DNA of 51,276 bases from Sarea resinae (Eukaryota). Numbering within the stretch: position 1 is the stretch's first letter; each line of letters starts with the position of its first letter. Location of the stretch: assembly GCA_026026165.1 (NCBI GenBank), contig JAPEUD010000111.1:1-51276 (forward strand), given 5' to 3'. The translations under genes were made by a program, and so were the position numbers. The notes beneath the pieces are model-generated. The model made no database searches, was not told the DNA's origin, and saw nothing but the letters and a program-made list of their open reading frames with translations. Shown here piece after piece: positions 5,001-51,276 of the stretch.

Positions 5001-5609
5001 TTGCAATTCGGCGGCATTCTTCTGTACTGGATACACGGGGCGGGATTTACATACTGGATGGATGGATGAATGGATGGATGGGTACGGGGCGTTTGGAAGT
5101 ATATGAGGCTTGCAGCCGGTCTTATGCTCGTGGATTTGTTTCCCGGATTACGTTTTCGTATTGAGTGTACGAAGTTACGATTTGCTACCCTCTCTTAAAT
5201 ACATACGATGCCGCTTATTCTGATCCTATCATCGAGCAAACACGGACTAATGGCGTCAACAATGATTTCGAGATAAAGGAGGAATCTTGGCATTTCCGAG
5301 ACATGGCCGTATGAGAGTGCCTGTCGGCATACCTGCCTTGATCGATTTCGCTTATCAATCCATAGGGTAGCTGAAGCGGCACGGATGATGGCGTCCCCAT
5401 AAATTGCCCCGCCGTTGCATTCCAATAGCAATTGTTGTTCTCCTGTTCTGCTTACAGCATCAAAGATCGGTGAACATGACTTGCGCATCTGAGCTTGCTC
5501 AATATATAGATCCAGGGACGCCTTCTCGAGGGATCATGTTAGAGCTCGGAATCTGATCCAGCAGTGGTTGAAGTCTCCGCATCTACAAGTTATCGAGCAA
5601 GCGTCCGCC

Positions 5610-11760: not shown

Positions 11761-11801
11761 ATACCCTAATACCCTAATACCCTAATACCCCAAGACCCTA
11801 A
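11761..11801 (+). repeat. Short tandem (ACCCTAAT)n containing CCCTAA
   Basis: ataccctaat accctaat accctaat accccaag accctaa. Confidence 0.85.
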
Positions 11802-39880: not shown

Positions 39881-41722
39881 ATGTACCTAACGTTGTAAGA
39901 AGCGCTGCTATATACTATGCAAATAGGTATAATGTTAGGAGTATGCGTACAACAGATACAGTGAGACAGATACAGATAGGAATACAATACTATAGCTAGT
40001 ATATACCTATAGATACAGCGTTTAGAGCTTAGTTATACAATAAACTTTCTTATATAATTTATACATCTAATAATTAGTATTAAAAGCTTGCCTATAGTTG
40101 TTCTCTACTAGATTATTTAGTTTATCTCTTAATTAAATTACTTTTTACTACTTATCTCTAACGTTATTATTATTCTTTACAGTATTTTACTACACTACTA
40201 CTAATAAACGTGTTTACTTAGGCTCTATCTACCTCTAGACTCTAGCTAATCTATTAAAAGTTTAGGTGTGTAGAAGTATCCTACACTCTCTCTATAAAGC
40301 AGTAGAACTCTATCTCTATTAACAACTAGAGTTAAACTTAAACTCTTAAAGTACATACTTTTTTTAACAATTATAATTAGTAGAAATAATTTAGTAAGAG
40401 TAGAACTCTAGTAGTAGAGCTCTAGTTAGTTAATACTATTAAAATACTCTCTTTCTTTAGGCGTATTATATCTTCTAATCTTCTCTATTATAGTTCTATA
40501 AAGCGCGATTAATTATCTTGCGTTATAGCTGCAATATTACTATCCTTAATACTACACTAAAATTAATATAGATTCTAGTAGGAACGCTTATACAAACCTT
40601 AAGCAAACTTTAAACAATAAGGAGTAGATTTTAGTAGTTAAAGAGGTTAATTCTATCCTTAATGCTAAATTGCTAAGGATATAGATAGGAATTAATCGCC
40701 TATATAAAAATTAAGCGAATTTTAAACAACAAAGAGTAGATAGGAATTAGGATAGGAATTACCTTAGGGTTACACATTTTATTAACAATTTAGAAGATTA
40801 GAGCCTTTAACCTACTAATAAAAGTTGTAGTATTTAATGCGACAAATTAATTAGTGTTATTAGATTAATAGAATTCGATAAAAAAGTAGTTGTATTACAC
40901 TTATTACAACTCTAAGTTCTACTAACCTTAAATCTAACGCAAAATAAGAGATTATATATAGTAGGTAGTATAGGATATAAAGTAGAGATAATAGCTATCT
41001 CTAAGCAATACTAATTAATAAATAGTAGTTGTTATAGCTTATGCCTTACTATAAGAGTGTAATAGCGTGTGTAGATAGAACTATAGCTAGCGTTCTTTGT
41101 ATATATACTAGCTAGACTGCTTAGTTAGGCAATTAACCTTCTTACACTCTTTATACAAGCACTCTTGCTTATAATTAGTATTAACAGCAAGATTACTACT
41201 CTGCTATCACTACTAGCTAACTAGTTTACCTGTTAGCATGCTATTTATTTATTCTCTTACTATAAACACATGTCTCTAAATCTATAAATCTAATCTAACA
41301 CTTACTAATTAACCTAACTGTATTACAGCGGCTAAAGACACTGTCTTTCTGCTAATCTTTACCTCTTTAAGGCATTGAACTAAGCCCTAAGCGAGAATCG
41401 ACAGTGTTTTCTTAACAGTGTTTTCGCGCCTATTAAGAAACGCTCTCTGCCTACTAACCTAACTACCTTAATAGCTGCCTTAATCCTTGCCTACGCGCCT
41501 GCCCTCTGTTTGTTTAATCGCTAGCCTACTAGCGTCGATTTCCTACCCTTAGGGTTACCCTATCCCTTAGGGTTACTTAGGGTTCAAGGTATTAAGAGGT
41601 GATTGCAGCTAGCTAAGGCAGACTAACAGCGCACTTTGCCTCTAGCGCTTGCGCAGCGCTCTAAGGAAAGGAGAAGGCTTGCTTGTGTCTGATCTACTAG
41701 CCGCTGTTTAAAGATTAAAAAA

Positions 41723-41741
41723 CTTCTAGACAGTCTAGAAG
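41723..41741. repeat. 19-bp palindrome, copy 1 (CTTCTAGAC-A-GTCTAGAAG)
   Basis: Perfect 9-bp inverted arms around a 1-bp centre. Confidence 0.9.
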
Positions 41742-41910
41742 AAAAAGCTCTCTATATACATATACACTGCGCCTGCCTAGCCTGCTAGCTATTTAGCTAG
41801 CCTAGCTAGCGAAATCTACTAGGAGAGTTTAAGCGTCACTTAGGGTTAAAAGAGGATCAAGAGGTTATTACAGTGAGCTAAGGCATGCTAACTGCGCACT
41901 TCGCCTGCAG

Positions 41911-42255
41911 CGGCGCTGCCGCCGCCCTTAATAACTAGCAGCAGCAGCCGCAGCAGGCGGCGTAAGAACAAGAGCAATAAGAGCAGCAAGAGAAGCAAGA
42001 GGAGCAGCAAGAGAGATTAGGATTGCAATCGTTATTATTCTACTATAAGCTAAACTATTAGGTCCTAATCTGCTGTCAATATAGCTATGCCCTTTAAAAT
42101 ATAGACTGCTACTTAAAGGACAGTTATACAATGCTAGCTAAGGAGCGACGTCTGCTTAGAGCGCAGTATTAAGGCTGCAGCCTACTTAATCTGTATGCTG
42201 TGCCTTTGCCACTGCTAAATTGCCCTGCATTTCCTGCTCTAGAGGCACCTACCTA
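41911..42255 (+). pseudogene. RIP-mutated exon encoding a Q/E-rich tract and a DUF3505(OrsD)-like zinc-binding half module
   Basis: Follows GCTAAC...CTGCAG (intron 3' end at 41910). Frame +2 reads ...LFYYKLNY*VLICCQYSYAL*NIDCYLKDSY...PLPLLNCPAFPALEAP, which aligns with the N-terminus of the TLH frame. Confidence 0.55.
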
Positions 42256-44546
42256 ACCGCATTGCAGGCTAGAATCCTACTACAATTCCACAGTACGTAC
42301 TCCTACTGCTAGGCGCGCGACCGCGCTAGATTAGTTGCTAGGCGGCAGAACCCACTAGGATTCTAGCAGTTGAATTCCACCAGCCTACCACGCCCTAGAA
42401 AACCCCTTTCTAAGCCTCTACCTTGCTATCGCTACCACTCTGCCGACCTGATCGCACACGACTGCCACCCTTAAAACGTCCTTGTAGCTCTTTAGAGACG
42501 CCGTCGTTGATTTAGGGTTAGGTGGCCTTAGTTAGGGTTAAGTTAGGGCTACTTTTGACGACGTACCTACTAGGCAGGCGCGCGCCGCCCACGACTGACC
42601 AAGCTATTCAAGCAGGCCAGAACGCAAAGCAAGCAAGGGTAGATTCTAACTCTACACTACACTAGAAGGACCTTTATCTATCCTAGAAGGGAAGAGAGGC
42701 AAGTGCAACGATTAAGGAGAGAGGGCCTATCTTATCAGATAGAAGAACGTAAAGGAAGAATCTAAATAGTGGAACTAATTGCTGCGCTAGACTAGCTCTT
42801 ATACAGGGCTGATTATTAGGTGCTCCTCTGCACCTAGCACTATACCGCGGTGCGCAACCTTAGCTAGCATCTTAAGCATCGGCATAGGCTGTCTGCCTGC
42901 TAGCGCTAGCCTATTAAAGCGGCATTACATAAGCAAGTCTAGCTGCTGCTAGCAGAGGTGCGCATCCCCTCTTTAGGTATTCCGCTATTTGCTGAGCTTA
43001 GGAGACTGCTTAATGCCTTTCAATGCTAGGAATGTGATTATATCTCGATTAATTGTAAGGGCATTCGCTAGCATTGCAATCGACAGCATCAATAGTATGT
43101 GACTAAGGGTGAGACTAAACATTGGTCGCCTATAAAGGTGCAAACCTTTTTCTGTAGGCGAGGCCTAGAGCGCTATTTTGTGGTGGCCTAGGCTAAGCAT
43201 GACGATCCTGCGTCAACAAACAGTAGAGGGCCACTTGCACAGACTAGAATAGATAGAGATCTAGCTGTAGACAACTAGCTCGAGCAAGAATTAAGCTCGC
43301 AGATCTAGCGCGAATTTAGTGCCTAGCAGGCCGCGTAGGAGCAGAGGCAGGCGCACTTTGAGAGCGAGGTGCAGAAGACTAATCAGACAGGCTAGTTCAA
43401 CCAGACTGGTTAGCCGACCCACCTACAACGTTAAAACCTCGAACACCTTCTCTATGCTAGCCAACTGCCTAATAACTAGCCGCGACATAGGCGGCGGCGG
43501 CAGCGGCCCCTGCTAGAGGATAGGTTGGACTGCATCATGAGCCAGGCGGCTAAGGTCACCTGACTTATGATTGAGCGCTGCGTGGCTGGGCTCGCAACCC
43601 TACCTCTTGAGCTCTGCCGCTGGCTGCGCAGTGAGAAGCGCACTAAGGTCTATCAGAAGCCATTAGGTCAGCTGCAGACCCTTGAGGCTCAGGTGCGCTA
43701 TGCCAACTATTAGGCGCGTCTGATCTGCTATTGCCTGCGTGTCTTCGCCTACCGCACCTTCGCGGCGGCCGATGCACCCCTGGACGCGCGGCTGCAAGAT
43801 GCTGACGAATTGCTGCATCTGACAGCAGAGCAGAACGAGCGCTTGCAGGCTGTCTGGGAGTCGCTCGAGCTGGATAGCGACGAGGCCTCGCAGGTCGACT
43901 AAGTGCTAGCCTTCTTGCAGGCGCTGATCTTTCACCTACTGCTAGTGGACCCCTTTGACAGCGCGCTGATCCACTTCCTCGCGGTGCTTAGCATCGACTC
44001 TAATACCAATCAGCTGCACACAGCGACAGGCTACTCCTACTAGCTAGCTAGGGTGGTCTACTACGTGCAGGTGATTAGGGTCGAGGCGCTCCTGCTAGCG
44101 GCTAGGCGCGAGCAGCAGGGCTAGGCCAAGCGAAAACGCTTCCTAACCTAGCGCAAGAAGTTCCTCGCTAATAGCTCGCTGAGCCTGATAAGCACAATAA
44201 TCAGTCTGCTAGCATACAGCAAGTACATCGGCACGCGGGAGCCTAGCACAGCGACGACGAGTTAGGCCTAGGATAGTGCTCTGTCGCTGCGCTTCTGTGG
44301 CAAGCCGATTGTGATCGCCTACTTCTGGCAGATAGCGCACTAGGTTATTGAGGCGGCTAAGGCTATCCTCTAGCAGGAGCTTATGTGGTGCGGTAAGGCG
44401 AAGGACTGCTTCATAGTCGACCTCGCTGGCATCAAAGACGACATAGCTTTCACTAAGCAGGATTAGTCCTTCCTTAGCAACCTGGCTAACCAGCTCAATC
44501 AGGGGCTCTCCTAGATAGTGGCGCGGGTGGTGCGCATAGCCTAGAA

Positions 44547-44565
44547 CTTCTAGACAGTCTAGAAG
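44547..44565. repeat. 19-bp palindrome, copy 2 (CTTCTAGAC-A-GTCTAGAAG), inside the TLH frame
   Basis: Identical to copy 1, with the same AA flank on the left and AAA flank on the right. Confidence 0.9.
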
Positions 44566-45429
44566 AAAGAAAGAGAAAGAAGACCCCTCTGACAGCGCGA
44601 CAGCACTGGCTAGGAACCTGGCCTAGTCAAGGACTACTGCTAGCAGGTGCAGGCCTTTCTTAAGCTGCTCCTCTTTAGCTGCCATGTGACTAGGGGCTAG
44701 CCTAGCTGTGGCACAGAGGAGTTGTCGGTCTGGCATCGCAACAGCCTGCTGCAGGATCGCAATGTCTACGTGGTGGATAGATCAGTGGTGCTAGTGACCC
44801 GCTACTATAAGAGCTAGGCCTAGTACAATACACCTAAGGTGGTGCCGCGCTTTCTGCTCTAGCGAGTCAGCTAGCTCATAGTTGTCTACCTAGCCTACGT
44901 GCGGCCGTTCTACAGCCACCTGCAGACGGCTGTTAGGATTAGTAGAGGGCTCGACAATGAATTCATCTAGGGGACAGCTAAAGGGCAGCCGTGGCCGACA
45001 GAGCAGCTGACCTAAGTCATTAGCTAGGAGACAGCCACGCGGTTAAAATGTCGGCTGACCACGCTAGACTACTAACATGTAGCTATCACTATCGGCTAGG
45101 AATTCGTGGGCTAGGAATTCGCCGCGAGAGAGGAGCGAGCCCTGCATAGAGAGGACAAGGCTAAGGACGTAGAGGAGCTGCAGTTAGAGCAGGAGGACAA
45201 ACTTGAGCTCTAGACCAGGCACACTACCGCCACAGGGCAGACTCGCTATAGGGTCTCTAGGGATATCGTCTGCAATCTCAGCGCCTGCTCCCTTAAGGTG
45301 TTTAGCCAGGTCAGTTAGGCGTGGCATGCATTCCTGCAGCTTGACAGCGGTAGGAGCCTAGCCGCTCTAAGGGATTAGAGAGAGTCTGAGCCTGAGCTAA
45401 AGCGAAAGCTAAAGCCAAAGCAGAAGTAG

Positions 45430-45471
45430 GAGGAGGAGGAGGAGGAGGAGGAGGAGGAGGAGGAGGAGGAG
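45430..45471 (+). repeat. (GAG)14 trinucleotide run, poly-Glu linker in the TLH frame
   Basis: Read directly; in frame +1 between the recombinase-like and helicase domains. Confidence 0.95.
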
Positions 45472-47442
45472 GAAGCGCTAAAAGAAGAGGAAGACTAAGA
45501 AGAAAGAGAAGAAACAAGAGTGCTAGTGGTTAGCTGTGGCCGCTGCAAGCGGTTTCAGCTGCTGGCAGACGACAATAGTTTGAGGCAGGAGATCGATGTC
45601 GACTCAGACAAGGTGGTTGCTAGCATGCAGCAAGTGCTGCAGTGTAGTCGAGTGGAGTTTAAATCGGCTGAGCAGCGAGTGGCATTGCAAGCGATCTTGC
45701 AGCACAAGACCGCGACTGTAGTAGTGCTGCCTACTAGAGGTAGGAAGAGCTTGCTGTTCATGCTACCTGCTTGGCTCAAGCAACAGCGGCAGGAGAGAGG
45801 GCAGCAAGGGCCGCGGGTGACAGTGGTAGTGGTGCTGTTCTGTGCCCTAGTGAACGATCTAGTAGGCTGGTTGCAGCAGGTCAGCATCAACAGTCTTGAG
45901 TAGAAGCACAGCGATAGCAGCTTCGCTGCAGTAGTAGTGGTCAGCGCTGATCTCGCTAGTGGGTCGGGTTTCTTAACGTACGCCACTGCGCTGCAGCGCT
46001 ACAGTCTGCTACAGCAGATCGTTGTAGACGAGTGTCATCTAACGTTCACAGCCAACGATTACTGGCCGCGGCTCAACGATCTCAAGCATCTGCAGACAAT
46101 GATGTGCCTGATGATACTCCTAACCGCGACTCTACCGCCGGCTCTTAAGCGGGAGCTGGCCGACAGCATGCTGATGCTGATAGCGCAGTGCATCTAGGCC
46201 CGCACGATCCGACCACAGACCCGCTATCTGGTGGTGCAGTGCGAAGATAGCTAGCTGCTTGAGAGCGCGGTGCATCTCTGCTGACAGCAGCTGCAGCAGC
46301 GACTGCAGCGGCAAGGAAAAGGGGTGGTCTACTGCCGAACGCAGGCGGCATGCGAGGCATTAGCTGACACGCTATAGTGCGGCTACTATCACTCGACGTC
46401 AGAGGACAAGGAGCGCTAGCTTAGGCGGTGGATATCTAAAGGGGGCTAGATCGTCGCCACAGGCGCGCTTGGCACCAGGGTCGACTACAGCGGGATCTTA
46501 ATGACAGTGCATGTAGGCGTGCTGTATAGGATGATCGACTTCGCGCAGGAGTCTAGGCAGGCCAGACAGGGTGGCGAGGACGTGGATGCAGTCGTGCTTG
46601 TAGAAGCTAGCGAGCTTAGGGGACTAGTGCAACTGCAGCGGTAGGGTAGCGGCGGGTCGGCGGCAGCGGCTGTCGTAGAGCGTACTGTGGACCAGCAGGC
46701 GATGTAGGAATTCATGACGACTTAGGGCTGCTAGCGGCAGATCATGAGCGGCTATCTAGACAGAAAGGGGGTCTGGTGTAGGGAGGTCGATCAGGGCAGG
46801 GCGGCACAGTGCGATCGATGTAGAGAGGGCTTGACTGAGTGGCAGACTAGCTAGGCCGAAGGGGAGCGGCAGCGGGCTATAGTTAAGGAGGCACTCGACT
46901 AGCTCAAGGGGCGGTGCGCTGTCTGCTAGGTAGTAGAGGGGCTTAAGGAAGGGGTTAGGCAGGCGGAGCGGTAGGAGCATAGCTGGCACTAATGCCTGCA
47001 GCGGGGCGCACTGAGCAAGCAGGCTGTGGATAGCTTCCGACAGAAAATCTGGTTCTGAGAGGACTTGCAGGAGAAGACACACAGCTGCTTTCGATGTGGC
47101 ATCAGTCAGCGGTATTGCCAGACTAGGACTGACACTTAGGCCGGCTGTCAGTGGCCGAATCGACTGGTGCTGATCGTGCAGACAGTGGCAGCAGAGGCAA
47201 GAGGCGGCGCCAAAGGGTGGGAACTGATCCAGAAGGTCGGATTTCTTAGGGAGCAAGGGGACATAGAAGGATACAGCAAGTGGCTTAGGCAACGGCACAT
47301 CTGGCGGGTGTAGGGAGAGTGGATTAGTAACGCGATAGTGGTGATGATCGAAGTGATTCTGTCTCTTCAGAGAGAGCTGGCGAGAACTTAGACGTCGCTC
47401 TCAAGGCAGTTTAAAGTCTAATACAGCGGTTAGAAGATGAAA

Positions 47443-47461
47443 CTTCTGGACTGTCTAGAAG
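47443..47461. repeat. 19-bp palindrome, copy 3 (CTTCTGGAC-T-GTCTAGAAG)
   Basis: Two differences from copy 1; shares the wider context AAGAT..AAA[site]AAA(A/G)GCT with copy 1. Confidence 0.88.
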
Positions 47462-47490
47462 AAAAGGCTTTAGGTTAGAGCAATAGAGTA

Positions 47491-48529
47491 GTGGTCAACC
47501 CGTGGTCAACCTGTGGTCAATCCGTTTAAACACCTGTTTAAATACCGGTGGGCAACCCGCCTGGTAGGCAACCCGCCTGGTGGGTAACCGGTGGGCAACC
47601 CAGTGGGTAACTAGTGGGCAACCTGGTGGGCAACCCGGTAGGCAACCTGTGGGCAACCCGCCTGGTGGGTAACCCGCCTAGTGGGCAACCCGTGGGTAAC
47701 CTGTGGGCAACCCGTGGGCAGCCCGGTGAGCAACCCGGTGGGCAACCCGGTGGGCAACCCGTGGGCAACCCGCCCGGTGGGTAACCCGCCCAGTGGGCAA
47801 CCCGTGGGTAACCTGTGGGCAACCCGTGGGCAGCCCGGTGGGTAACCCGTGGGCAACCCGTGGGCAGCCCGGTGAGCAACCCGTGGGCAGCCTGGTGGGC
47901 AGCCTGGTGGTCAACCCGTGGGTAACCCGTGGGCAACCCGTGGGCAGCCCGGTGAGCAACCCGGTGGGCAACCCGGTGGGCAACCCGTGGGCAACCCGCC
48001 CGGTGGGTAACCCGCCTAGTGGGCAACCTGTGGGTAACCTGTGGGCAACCCGTGGGCAGCCCGGTGGGTAACCCGTGGGCAACCCGTGGGCAGCCCGGTG
48101 AGCAACCCGTGGGCAGCCCGGTGGGCAGCCTGGTGGTCAACCCGTGGGTAACCCGTGGGCAACCTGTGGGCAGCCTGGTGAGCAACCTGGTGGGCAACCC
48201 GTGGGCAGCCTGGTGAGCAACCCGGTGGGCAACCTGGTGGGCAACCTGTGGGCAACCCGCCCGGTGGGTAACCCGCCTAGTGGGCAACCCGTGGGTAACC
48301 CGTGGGCAACCCGTGGGCAGCCCGGTGGGTAACCCGTGGGCAACCCGTGGGCAGCCCAGTGAGCAACCCAGTGGGCAACCCGTGGGCAGCCCGGTGAGCA
48401 ACCTGGTGGGCAACCCAGTAGGCAACCTGTGGGCAACCCGCCTGGTAGGTAACCCGCCTAGTAGGCAACCCGTGGGTAACCCGTGGGCAGCCCGGTGGGC
48501 AACCCGTTTGAACACCCGTTTAGACACCG
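47491..48529. repeat. GC-rich helicase-associated tandem array of 11-12-bp modules (GTGGGCAACCC / GTGGGTAACCC / GTGGGCAGCCC / GGTGAGCAACCC)
   Basis: About 1 kb of head-to-tail modules with irregular higher-order blocks (CGCCCGGTGGGTAACCCGCC-type anchors near 47659, 47771, 47997, 48258 and 48439). Confidence 0.97.
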
Positions 48530-49249: not shown

Positions 49250-51030
49250 GTTTAAGATTAAGGTAAGAAGAGAGGTTTAGGATTAAGTTAGTAAGATCGA
49301 GTTCGAGTTTAATGCAGTAGAAAAGGGTTTAGGTTTAAGGTAGTAGGAGAGGGTTTGAGTTTGAGGCAGTAGGAAAGGGTTTAGGTTTAAGGTAGGAGGA
49401 GAGGGTTTAGGTTTAAGGCAGTAGGAAAGGGCGAGGGTTTAAGGTAGGAGGAGAGAGTTTAGGTTTAAGGCAGTAGGAAAGGGTTTAGGTTTGAGTTTCA
49501 AGCAGTAGGAGAGGGGTTAGGTTTAAGGCAGTAGGAGATAGTTTAGGTTTAAGGCAGTAGGAAAGGGTTTAGGTTTAAGGCAGTAGGAGAGGGTTTAGGT
49601 TTAAGGCAGTAGGAGAGGGTTTGAGTTTGAGGTAGGAGGAGAGGGTTCAGGTTTCAGGCAGTAGGAAAGGGTTTGAGTTTTAGGCAGTAGGAAAGGGTTT
49701 AGGTTCGAGGTAGTAGGAGAGGGTTTAGGTTTAAGGCAGTAGGAAAGGGCGAGGGTTTAAGGTAGGAGGAGAGGGTTTAGGTTTGAGGTAGTAGGAGAGG
49801 GTTTAGGTTTAAGGCGGTAGGAAAGGGTTCGGATTCAAGGCAGTAGGAGAGGGTTTGGGTTTCAAGCAGTAGGAAAGGGTTTGAGTTTAAGGCAGTAGGA
49901 AAGGGTTTAGGTTTAAGGCAGTAGGAGAGGGTTTAGGTTCGAGGCAGTAGGAAAGGGCGAGGGTTTAGGGTAGTAAGAGAGGGTTTAGGTTTAGCAGTAG
50001 GAGAGGGTTAGGTTTAAGGCAGTAGGAAAGGGTTTAGGTTTAAGGCAGTAGGAAAGGGTTTAGGTTTAAGGCAGTAGGAAAGGGTTAGGGTTCGAGGCAG
50101 TAGGAAAGGGCGAGGGTTTAAGGTAGAAGAAGAGGGTTTAGGTTCGAGGCAGTAGAGAAGAGCAAGGGTTTAAGGTAGGAGGAGAGGGTTTAGGTTTAAG
50201 GTAGTAGGAGAGAGTTTAGGTTTAAGGCAGTAGGAAAGGGTTCAGATTTAAGGCAGTAGAGAAGGGCAAGGGTTTAAGGTAGGAGGAGAGGGTTTAGGTT
50301 TAAGGTAGTAGGAGAGAGTTTAGGTTTAAGGCAGTAGGAAAGGGTTTAGATTTAAGGCAGTAGGAGAGGGTTCGGGTTTTAAGCAGTAGGAAAGGGTTCG
50401 AGTTTAAGGCAGTAGGAAAGGGTTTAGGTTTAAGGCAGTAGGAGAGGGTTTAGGTTTAAGGCAGTAGGAAAAGGCAAGGGTTTAAGGTAGGAGGAGAGGG
50501 TTTAGGTTTAAGGCAGTAGAGAAGGGTTTAGGTTTGAGGCGGTAGGAAAGGGCAAGGGTTTAGGTTAAAGGCAGTAGGAAAGGGCGAGGGTTTAGGTTAA
50601 AGGCAGTGGGAAAGGGCAAGGGTTTAAGGTAAGAGGAGAGGGTTTAGGTTCGAGGCAGTAGGAAAGGGCAAGGGTTTAAGGTAGGAGGAGAGAGTTTAGA
50701 ATTAAGGCAGTAGGAAAGGGTTTAGGTTTGAGGCAGTAGGAAAGGGCGAGGGTTTAGGGTAGAAGGAGAGGGTTAGGTTTGAGGCAGTAGGAAAGGGTTT
50801 AGGTTTAAGGCAGTAGGAAAGGGTTTAGGTTTAGGGTAGAAAGAGAGGGTTTAGGTTTAAGGCAGTAGGAAAGGGGTTAGGTTTGAGGCAGTGGGAAAGG
50901 GGTTAGGTTTAAGGTAGTAAGAGAGGGTTTAGGGTTAAGGCAGTAGGAAAAGAGTTAGGGTACAAAGCAGTGAGAGAGGGTTTAGGTTCGACGCAGTAGG
51001 AAAGGGCAAGGGTTCAAGGTAGTAGGAAAG
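49250..51030 (+). repeat. Telomere-adjacent 26-bp satellite, consensus GGGTTTAGGTTTAAGGCAGTAGGAAA
   Basis: Period 26 is clear at 50041-50080; dozens of degenerate copies; the + strand is strongly G-rich and C-poor. Confidence 0.95.
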
Positions 51031-51152
51031 AGTTAGAGTTTAAGGGAGTGAGAGCGAGTAAGAGTTTGTAGTAGAAAAGAGCAAGAACAAGAGTGTAAGA
51101 GTTGTAAAGTAGAGCAAAGCAAAGCAGAGTGAAACATTGCGCGAGCATTTGC

Positions 51153-51276
51153 TTAGGGTTAGGGTTAGGGTTAGGGTTAGGGTTAGGGTTAGGGTTAGGG
51201 TTAGGGTTAGGGTTAGGGTTAGGGTTAGGGTTAGGGTTAGGGTTAGGGTTAGGGTTAGGGTTAGGGTTAGGGTTAG
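51153..51276 (+). repeat. Telomere (TTAGGG)n
   Basis: 20 perfect TTAGGG units plus TTAG running to the window end, G-rich strand pointing outward. Confidence 0.99.

Follow-up and report, generated by a model that had tools for sequence, protein, structure and literature searches.

Recurrent palindromic repeats around and within a telomere-linked RecQ helicase pseudogene at a chromosome end of Sarea resinae

[quoted passage not shown] The best explanation of our results is that a short repeat belonging to the TLH subtelomeric element of this fungus has the palindrome as its conserved core, and that the palindrome is, by analogy, the counterpart of the palindrome-bearing helicase-associated repeat (HAR) that lies beside the TLH genes of Magnaporthe oryzae. 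The palindrome may further be an element-specific site for binding of a protein dimer, possibly a recombination site, a reading that we propose tentatively and that is somewhat more likely to be wrong than right.

All three copies lie inside a TLH locus of about 6 kb, with none in the remaining 45 kb or so of the window, a confinement that speaks for a repeat belonging to the element. Copy 1 (core CTTCTAGACAGTCTAGAAG at 41723-41741, in a 30-nt unit at 41720-41749) stands approximately 1.06 kb 5' of the TLH frame, copy 2 has the same core (44547-44565, in a 24-nt unit at 44545-44568) within the plus-strand coding sequence, and copy 3 (core CTTCTGGACTGTCTAGAAG at 47443-47461, in a 30-nt unit at 47440-47469) starts 52 nt past the likely TLH stop codon at 47389-47391; copies 1 and 3 are given no strand. 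These sequences and positions, as well as the spacings of 2824 and 2896 base pairs (bp), are as described in an initial annotation of the window. A search of the 51,276 nt for the pattern CTTCYRGACWGTCYRGAAG with up to two mismatches returned three matches, at 41723, 44547 and 47443, as against a mean of 0.01 in 100 dinucleotide shuffles, none of which reached three. Copy 2 reproduces copy 1 without a difference for 24 nt (41721-41744 and 44545-44568), the longest exact dispersed repeat of the region 40000-47480 (100 shuffles: mean 12.9, maximum 16), and copies 1 and 3 have 27 of 30 nt in common (41720-41749 and 47440-47469). The whole window holds three perfect palindromes with arms of at least 9 nt, two of which are copies studied here, and a purine/pyrimidine-collapsed scan of the 51 kb, tolerant of the transitions left by repeat-induced point mutation (RIP), found no fourth copy.

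Conservation is confined to the repeated unit, which is just 24-30 nt long. In a transition-tolerant alignment that scored transitions leniently, the 150-nt flanks outside the 30-nt unit were no more alike than shuffled sequence for any pair of copies, 144-291 of 300 shuffles reaching the observed score. Copies 1 and 3 had initially been described as sharing extra flanks, as direct repeats bracketing the gene; this additional match extends over some 3 nt on the upstream and 8 nt on the downstream side, with nothing common beyond the unit. As had also been noticed, copies 2 and 3 differ in register, reading NF*TV*KK and KLLDCLEEKA in frame 1; the three sites fall in three different codon registers, so that conservation acts at the DNA level. 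A non-random unit kept as DNA between unrelated flanks favors the reading of a repeat core. The arms are perfect over 9 nt in copies 1 and 2 and paired at 8 of 9 positions in copy 3, around a single unpaired central base, and every copy is bordered by A runs (AAA or GAA before, AAA after). The copy 1 strand can fold into a hairpin of -5.7 kcal/mol (z -2.9); the copy 3 hairpin is weak (-3.7 kcal/mol, with 9 of 200 shuffles folding equally well). The hairpin loop is CAG in copies 1 and 2 (41729-41735 and 44553-44559) and CTG in copy 3 (47449-47455), and these loops are reverse-complementary even though every copy has its A-rich flanks in direct orientation, a pattern that recalls the flip/flop loops known from hairpin-replicated DNA.

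The region from about 40000 to 48000 has a RIP-like composition, with a TA/AT ratio of 1.5-2.8 and CTAG at 5-40 times its frequency elsewhere (26-42 per 2 kb versus 1-8 elsewhere in the window). RIP converts TpG to TpA and CpA to TpA; position 5 of the motif is T in all three copies and copy 3 retains TGG, which together point to CTTCTGGAC-W-GTCCAGAAG as a RIP-consistent ancestor. By sequence, this is the better-fitting pre-RIP form, and the CCGG form first put forward, CTTCCGGAC-W-GTCCGGAAG, is probably wrong.

The gene in and around which these copies lie is a plus-strand TLH pseudogene in window frame 1, spanning approximately 42784-47391. Its homologues are fungal RecQ-type proteins of 1450-1500 residues (E down to 1e-268), and residues 7-1449 of one of them (P0002) align with 42784-47367; the few homologues that carry an organism name all come from what we take to be Dothideomycetes. 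On these sequence matches, the pseudogene is identified as a TLH gene of the type described from Magnaporthe, Fusarium, Botrytis and others. In-frame stops number 56 between 43537 and 47470, 47 of them TAG, and everything related to TLH in this window is a RIP-killed relic. A RecQ-type helicase core followed by a Cys-rich C-terminal region occupies 45600-47388 on the plus strand, with a VDECH motif at about 46030. Pfam families PF00270, PF00271, PF04851 and PF12013 were detected on the homologues, the first two in the helicase core; a Pfam scan of the read-through product of the pseudogene returned no family, probably owing to its X positions and to RIP missense changes. Five shorter proteins (P0066-P0070), 811-974 residues long, align with no more than the N-terminal 34-46% of the query and are without helicase domains; the region they match is the OrsD-type PF12013 zinc-finger region plus the stretch that follows, so the N-terminal part of TLH also occurs alone. 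One of them, in Elsinoe, is named 'Orsellinic acid-like protein'. Upstream of the pseudogene, a degenerate duplicate of the TLH N-terminus (42062-42274, plus strand, frame 2) matches residues 1-72 of the homologue P0004, and copy 1 lies about 340 nt upstream of this duplicated 5' fragment.

The part of the protein that precedes the helicase offers a candidate partner for the palindrome. In the accessible portions of the literature, the term 'TLH domain' denotes some 250 residues before the helicase with no function assigned. In the window, this domain is encoded at 43900-45350 (plus strand), and in the homologues it is predicted to adopt a two-domain tyrosine-recombinase fold with a catalytic C-terminal domain, so that the 'recombinase-helicase' label of the initial annotation is borne out at the level of the predicted fold, and the model supports TLH as a recombinase-helicase fusion at that level. 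All of 46 sequences share R284 (of GQPxRG), K318 (of YHK, following a beta strand), the R403-H404 pair of DYRH and Y457, in keeping with an element-encoded binder. R448, nine residues before Y457, is nearly invariant in the 46 and invariant, as R792, in 27 full-length proteins. The His/Trp-to-Tyr pair of known tyrosine recombinases is likewise spaced by nine residues, and we infer a putative R-K-H-R-(H/W)-Y catalytic set from such spacing, with Y457 in a low-confidence part of the model. In the window copy, the first candidate catalytic Arg is a Cys and the second a stop; a putative cognate recombinase gene lies beside the sites by virtue of fold and conserved residues in the homologues, the local copy being a pseudogene.

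Sequence-based searches of the domain gave sub-threshold or null results. No Pfam recombinase family matched the 46 TLH-domain sequences at E up to 1; Zf-Nsp1alpha appeared below threshold in 26 of the 46 (19 bits for the tabulated member, against a 27-bit cut-off), and a TLH-domain profile run against PDB sequences gave only rows at chance level (E of 0.5 or more). The Atlas leads were also sub-threshold (Phage_integrase 0.83, NDC10_II 0.81). Among the papers listed, our literature search found no publication linking TLH with tyrosine recombinases, and the word 'recombinase' occurs nowhere in the accessible text of a preprint on TLH genes of Fusarium oxysporum.

Copy 2 is part of a lineage-specific insertion in this domain. 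A stretch of 33 nt (44536-44568, plus strand), or 11 in-frame codons reading IA*NF*TV*KK, is located in a loop within the recombinase-like domain, some 46 codons upstream of the GQPxRGTE motif, and the 24-nt unit occupies its 3' two thirds. These 11 residues face a gap in all 14 homologues aligned to the read-through product, and the loop, which runs between the WML.R helix and the G.W motif, is of near-constant length in the 46 homologous TLH domains. The palindrome is thus no ancient part of the coding sequence but was acquired by the gene in this lineage. Since the family is multi-copy at the copy 2 position, the insertion probably took place before the family expanded.

This multi-copy status emerged from public sequencing data. 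A single public run (X1), which may be the window's own source, contained this DNA, with next to none of the stretch found in two others (X2 and X3). From X1, 3007 contig pieces were placed on the stretch, with likeness ranging from below 90% to above 99% and differences that were mainly transitions (530 places, versus 112 for transversions), a spread and mutation pattern indicating that the locus belongs to a multi-copy, RIP-diverged family. Summed depth peaked in the bin containing copy 1, in the upstream repeat zone, as would be expected for a repeat of the element. Depth at 42326-43430, a segment comprising the promoter plus the opening 215 or so codons of the complete TLH copy, was 10-50 times below that at 41442-42325 and from 43431 onward; this segment is either missing from most genomic copies or of a different lineage.

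To place the palindrome in a broader context, we compared the window with 80 TLH loci obtained from one scan of metagenome contigs. Two of these loci, L060 and L062, have their own private repeated palindromes on both sides of the gene, with arms of 11-14 nt, which lends support to a palindromic repeat as a component of TLH elements. The L060 family (GCCAAGCTCTCRATYGAGGGCTTGGC) is represented by GCCAAGCTCTCAATTGAGGGCTTGGC about 400 nt before the ATG of an open reading frame (ORF) of 1811 codons and by GCCAAGCTCTCGATCGAGGGCTTGGC about 150 nt after its stop, 5980 bp from the upstream copy and in unrelated flanks; a third, degenerate copy is found at 537, beyond a neighboring gene. No relative of L060 exceeded about 68% DNA identity. 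In L062, family A (TCATYCTGTACA..TGTACAGRATGA) has four copies upstream and at least three downstream of the gene, and a second family (TGTTGTCCNNGGACAACA) has one copy upstream of the TLH match and five within it, in variable stretches. For the palindrome-bearing ORF of L062, neither the other loci nor the window contained a relative, and the neighboring ORFs of both loci matched no Pfam family. More generally, palindromes with at least 10 paired bases occurred in 6 of 90 flank windows of 300 nt, compared with 2 of 120 coding windows and none of 90 shuffled flanks, a result that also favors an association with the element. A complete gene with at least 300 nt on both sides was present in 31 loci, many of whose flanks were shorter than the 1 kb needed to reach an equivalent of copy 1. 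Most palindromes inside other TLH genes lay in the gaps that separate tblastn segments, either in variable linkers or in what may be introns.

Several further features were observed at these loci. A perfect 28-bp palindrome (CGCCACGAATCGGGCCCGATTCGTGGCG; L015:179-206), for which about 0.008 would be expected over the 570 kb scanned, lies some 240 nt upstream of a TLH start and is present as a single copy in its 5.4-kb contig. An upstream motif is shared by L022 (30-100), L039 (360-430), L044 (370-430) and L035 (1-80); it consists of CCTAACC[A/G]ATATGA, about 35 variable and often palindromic bases and, after these, a motif of the GTTAGGGTT or GGTTAGGGTT type, with GCTTAGC in front of it in L022, L039 and L044. 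In effect, the loci have telomere-repeat halves in inverted orientation 150-250 nt upstream of the start codon. The promoter-side unit L035:1-316 recurs as a perfect inverted copy at 5288-5603, about 620 nt downstream of TLH, and similar inverted matches are found at the contig starts of L036 and L068; such matches may represent genuine inverted repeats on either side of the gene or artefacts of assembly where contigs end.

The closest known parallel is HAR-D of M. oryzae. According to the available part of the original description (Rehmeyer et al. 2006, PMC1635262), HAR-D includes an imperfect palindrome of 23 bp within a 50-bp core that every unit retains, the array that holds it ends 181 bp from the TLH start and HAR arrays occur on both sides of the gene; the accessible text draws no link to a recombinase. 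In both fungi, a short imperfect palindrome sits in dispersed units beside a telomere-linked RecQ helicase gene that is itself flanked by tandem repeats and by repeats containing TTAGGG. On our reading of Table 1 of that paper, the palindrome consists of 11-nt arms on either side of a single central base and shares its geometry with the window copies, which favors a common type of repeat; the window repeat likewise has the conserved core with an imperfect palindrome that characterizes HARs. The differences are that HAR-D has another sequence and forms a unit of about 90 nt within a compound array upstream of the gene, whereas the unit in the window is at most 30 nt long and recurs shortly after the stop as well as within the coding sequence.

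The proposed function builds on this arrangement. The palindrome would be a docking site with two-fold symmetry, at which a DNA-binding module encoded by the element would bind as a dimer; the best candidate for this module is the TLH protein's own TLH domain, with its tyrosine-recombinase fold. Copy 1, in the promoter-side repeat zone, and copy 3, 52 nt beyond the gene, bracket the cassette, so that bound protein could bring the ends of the cassette into synapsis and possibly carry out strand exchange in the inner arms, which would help the cassette to move or to be copied between chromosome ends. The third site came into the coding sequence with the 33-nt in-frame insertion, in a tolerant loop. 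Protein binding, the identity of the binder and any strand exchange are inferred. A bolder extension, which we regard as unlikely, is that TLH genes are both cargo and engine of an unrecognized class of eukaryotic mobile cassettes, in which a catalytically intact, divergent tyrosine recombinase fused to a RecQ helicase acts on lineage-specific end palindromes; the recombinase would excise, invert or re-insert the unit, or make circular templates. If true, this would explain the spread and homogenization of TLH among chromosome ends.

A number of results weigh against a binding or recombination site. The initial annotation had suggested looking for the motif at TLH loci of other fungi, and the exact motif was absent from all 80; the nearest matches, with 2-4 mismatches (L051, L052, L061, L069 and L070), were rejected as chance, being poor palindromes in a context conserved among these loci that is probably a neighboring gene. 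Repeated palindromes were found in only two further loci, and in one of them family A of L062 also occurs within a neighboring ORF, which suits a dispersed repeat. None of the four joints listed from X1, whose contigs are only a few hundred nt long, fell at 41732, 44556 or 47452, and at the homology breakpoints of 34 related, non-independent locus pairs no palindrome within 40 nt exceeds 8 paired bases. A site inside the element's own gene would be unexpected for a lox-like cassette. Symmetric differences do occur among copies (TGG/CCA to TAG/CTA in the window, CGATCG to CAATTG in L060); the mutation contexts are themselves symmetric, through RIP here and CpG decay in L060, so these differences were not counted as covariation and give no evidence of selection for symmetry. 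The cognate or crossover site proposed in the initial annotation consequently stands in part, in agreement with the predicted fold, the confinement to the TLH locus within the window and the private palindromes of L060 and L062, but unsupported by the joints and breakpoints, and at odds with the inserted nature of the internal copy and with the missing spacer.

This last point is best seen against well-characterized sites. The loxP, FRT and dif sites have arms of 11-13 bp and a separate, usually asymmetric spacer of 6-8 bp. The window repeat resembles them in its inverted arms, in the recombinase-fold protein encoded alongside and in the two sites that bracket a cassette, but has 9-bp arms, a 1-nt center and a third site within the gene. 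The 1-bp center had already been recognized as shorter than the classic spacer, and we confirm a single unpaired base; the separate crossover region of lox-type sites is absent, which is a further point against a recombination site, and a crossover region could exist only if the inner arm bases act as the overlap. Telomere resolvase targets are also near-perfect palindromes served by a tyrosine-recombinase-type enzyme at chromosome ends, but they are longer, even-length dyads at hairpin telomeres. We rejected the window site as such a target: it is 19 bp long, odd-centered and internal, and the chromosome ends in (TTAGGG)20.7. Bacterial attI-platform cassettes are similarly bounded by imperfect, hairpin-capable palindromes whose sequence varies from cassette to cassette, although their sites measure 57-141 nt and recombine as folded single strands. 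Yeast Y' elements, S. pombe tlh1/2 and the fungal TLH families share with the window a multi-copy, telomere-adjacent helicase gene that faces the chromosome end, with telomere-like motifs on its proximal side; they differ in that their spread is ascribed to homologous recombination between ends.

Instead of a binding site, the palindrome might be a functionless copy-and-paste insertion, either a tiny mobile unit or a templated insertion from break repair, that landed three times in A-rich spots and then multiplied with the family. We consider this rather unlikely, although much of the local evidence is compatible with it: the unit is 24-30 nt long with unrelated flanks, copy 2 is a filled site relative to the homologues of other species (14 aligned, 46 compared for loop length), the A-run borders could represent a 3-nt target duplication or a target preference, the CAG and CTG centers are reverse-complementary as if the loop or the unit flips, and family A of L062 sits inside a neighboring ORF. 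The Rickettsia palindromic elements are likewise short palindromic repeats and can insert in frame into protein-coding genes, but are bacterial, 100-150 nt long and spread genome-wide. To our knowledge, no eukaryotic mobile unit of 24-30 nt is known, which counts against such an insertion, as do the lack of any copy in the roughly 45 kb outside the TLH locus, the L060 copies without a flanking duplication and an inserted length of 33 nt rather than 19 plus a duplication. Palindromes beside TLH in three lineages plus M. oryzae suggest, moreover, a link to the element. A regulatory role in TLH expression, as sites for a dimeric transcription factor of the host or the element or as transcript hairpins, would involve no recombination and seems less probable again. 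Palindromes 200-400 nt upstream of the start at several loci, among them L015 (the 28-bp perfect one), L022, L039, L057 and L060, and 50-150 nt past the stop in the window, L060 and L062, would suit it, as would the foldable copy 1 strand and arms that resemble halves of the heat-shock element (TTCnnGAC and GTCnnGAA). The half-elements are, however, one base out of phase for a heat-shock factor trimer, the copy 3 hairpin is weak, copy 1 lies about 1 kb from the start of the full gene and a site in the coding region would be unusual; sequences that differ wholly between lineages also argue against a conserved host factor.

The palindrome could also be all that is recognizable, after RIP and indels, of a longer direct repeat, such as a tandem TLH spacer or a HAR, that once lay on both sides of the gene. 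Longer units of this kind do exist at TLH loci, as illustrated by the 316-nt unit of L035 upstream and, inverted, downstream of its gene, by units of about 50 nt around the L062 palindromes, by the arrays described on both sides in M. oryzae and by other direct repeats in the upstream zone of the window. We nevertheless judge a relic improbable, as RIP makes transitions only and yet the transition-tolerant alignment of the 150-nt flanks remained at shuffle level, and the copy in the coding sequence would be left unexplained. Survival of the core alone would moreover imply that the core is constrained, which would argue once more for a functional site. Convergence by chance in CTAG-rich, RIP-mutated sequence can be set aside almost entirely, even in a region as rich in CTAG as this one, given that dinucleotide shuffles never yielded three matches or an exact repeat longer than 16 nt, compared with the 24 nt observed.

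TLH genes are reported, in the source text available, from the chromosome ends of many fungi and of a choanoflagellate, with the function of both TLH and the TLH domain stated to be unknown. The predicted recombinase fold of this domain is the more interesting of our results, and it would make the site hypothesis testable. If the palindromes are sites of the TLH domain, the spread of the cassette could be tested as site-specific recombination, with homologous exchange no longer the sole candidate, and this would bear on subtelomere evolution and on telomerase-independent maintenance of chromosome ends. If they are only repeat debris, they would be a minor addition to the helicase-associated repeats of Magnaporthe.

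The chromosomal setting of the locus is subtelomeric. The pseudogene lies 3.8 kb from a terminal TTAGGG telomere repeat (51153-51276, plus strand, 20.7 copies) that reaches the window end, and about 20 of the comparison loci also end in TTAGGG downstream of the gene, indicating that a telomere-facing orientation of TLH is general. Between gene and telomere, distal to copy 3, there are approximately 77 copies of an 11-nt tandem repeat (GTGGGCAACCC; 47547-48507) and 66.5 copies of a 26-nt tandem repeat (49307-51049), both on the plus strand. On the proximal side, the repeat zone around copy 1 (41542-41912, plus strand) contains TTAGGG at 41549, 41567, 41577 and 41840, the last of these 117 nt downstream of copy 1, and a direct repeat (41569-41647 versus 41832-41912, 78% over 81 nt). 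A cluster of three further TTAGGG motifs (42512-42548, plus strand) stands about 240 nt upstream of the TLH frame. The upstream tracts may be healed telomere junctions, although TLH promoters of other loci contain a comparable TTAGGG-bearing motif.

Three minor observations concern neighboring sequences. A 'Helitron-like' neighbor of TLH in B. cinerea was set aside as irrelevant: it is a 15.5-kb element, and the preprint that describes it contains neither 'hairpin' nor 'palindrom'. Just proximal to the TLH repeat zone, an AT-rich block (40000-41400; GC 26% in 40001-41000, TA/AT 1.9) is probably an older repeat more heavily mutated by RIP. Finally, four minus-strand TTAGGG motifs at 11764, 11772, 11780 and 11796 (steps of 8, 8 and 16 nt) form a reverse telomere-like cluster (11764-11801) about 40 kb from the chromosome end, in surroundings that look normal.

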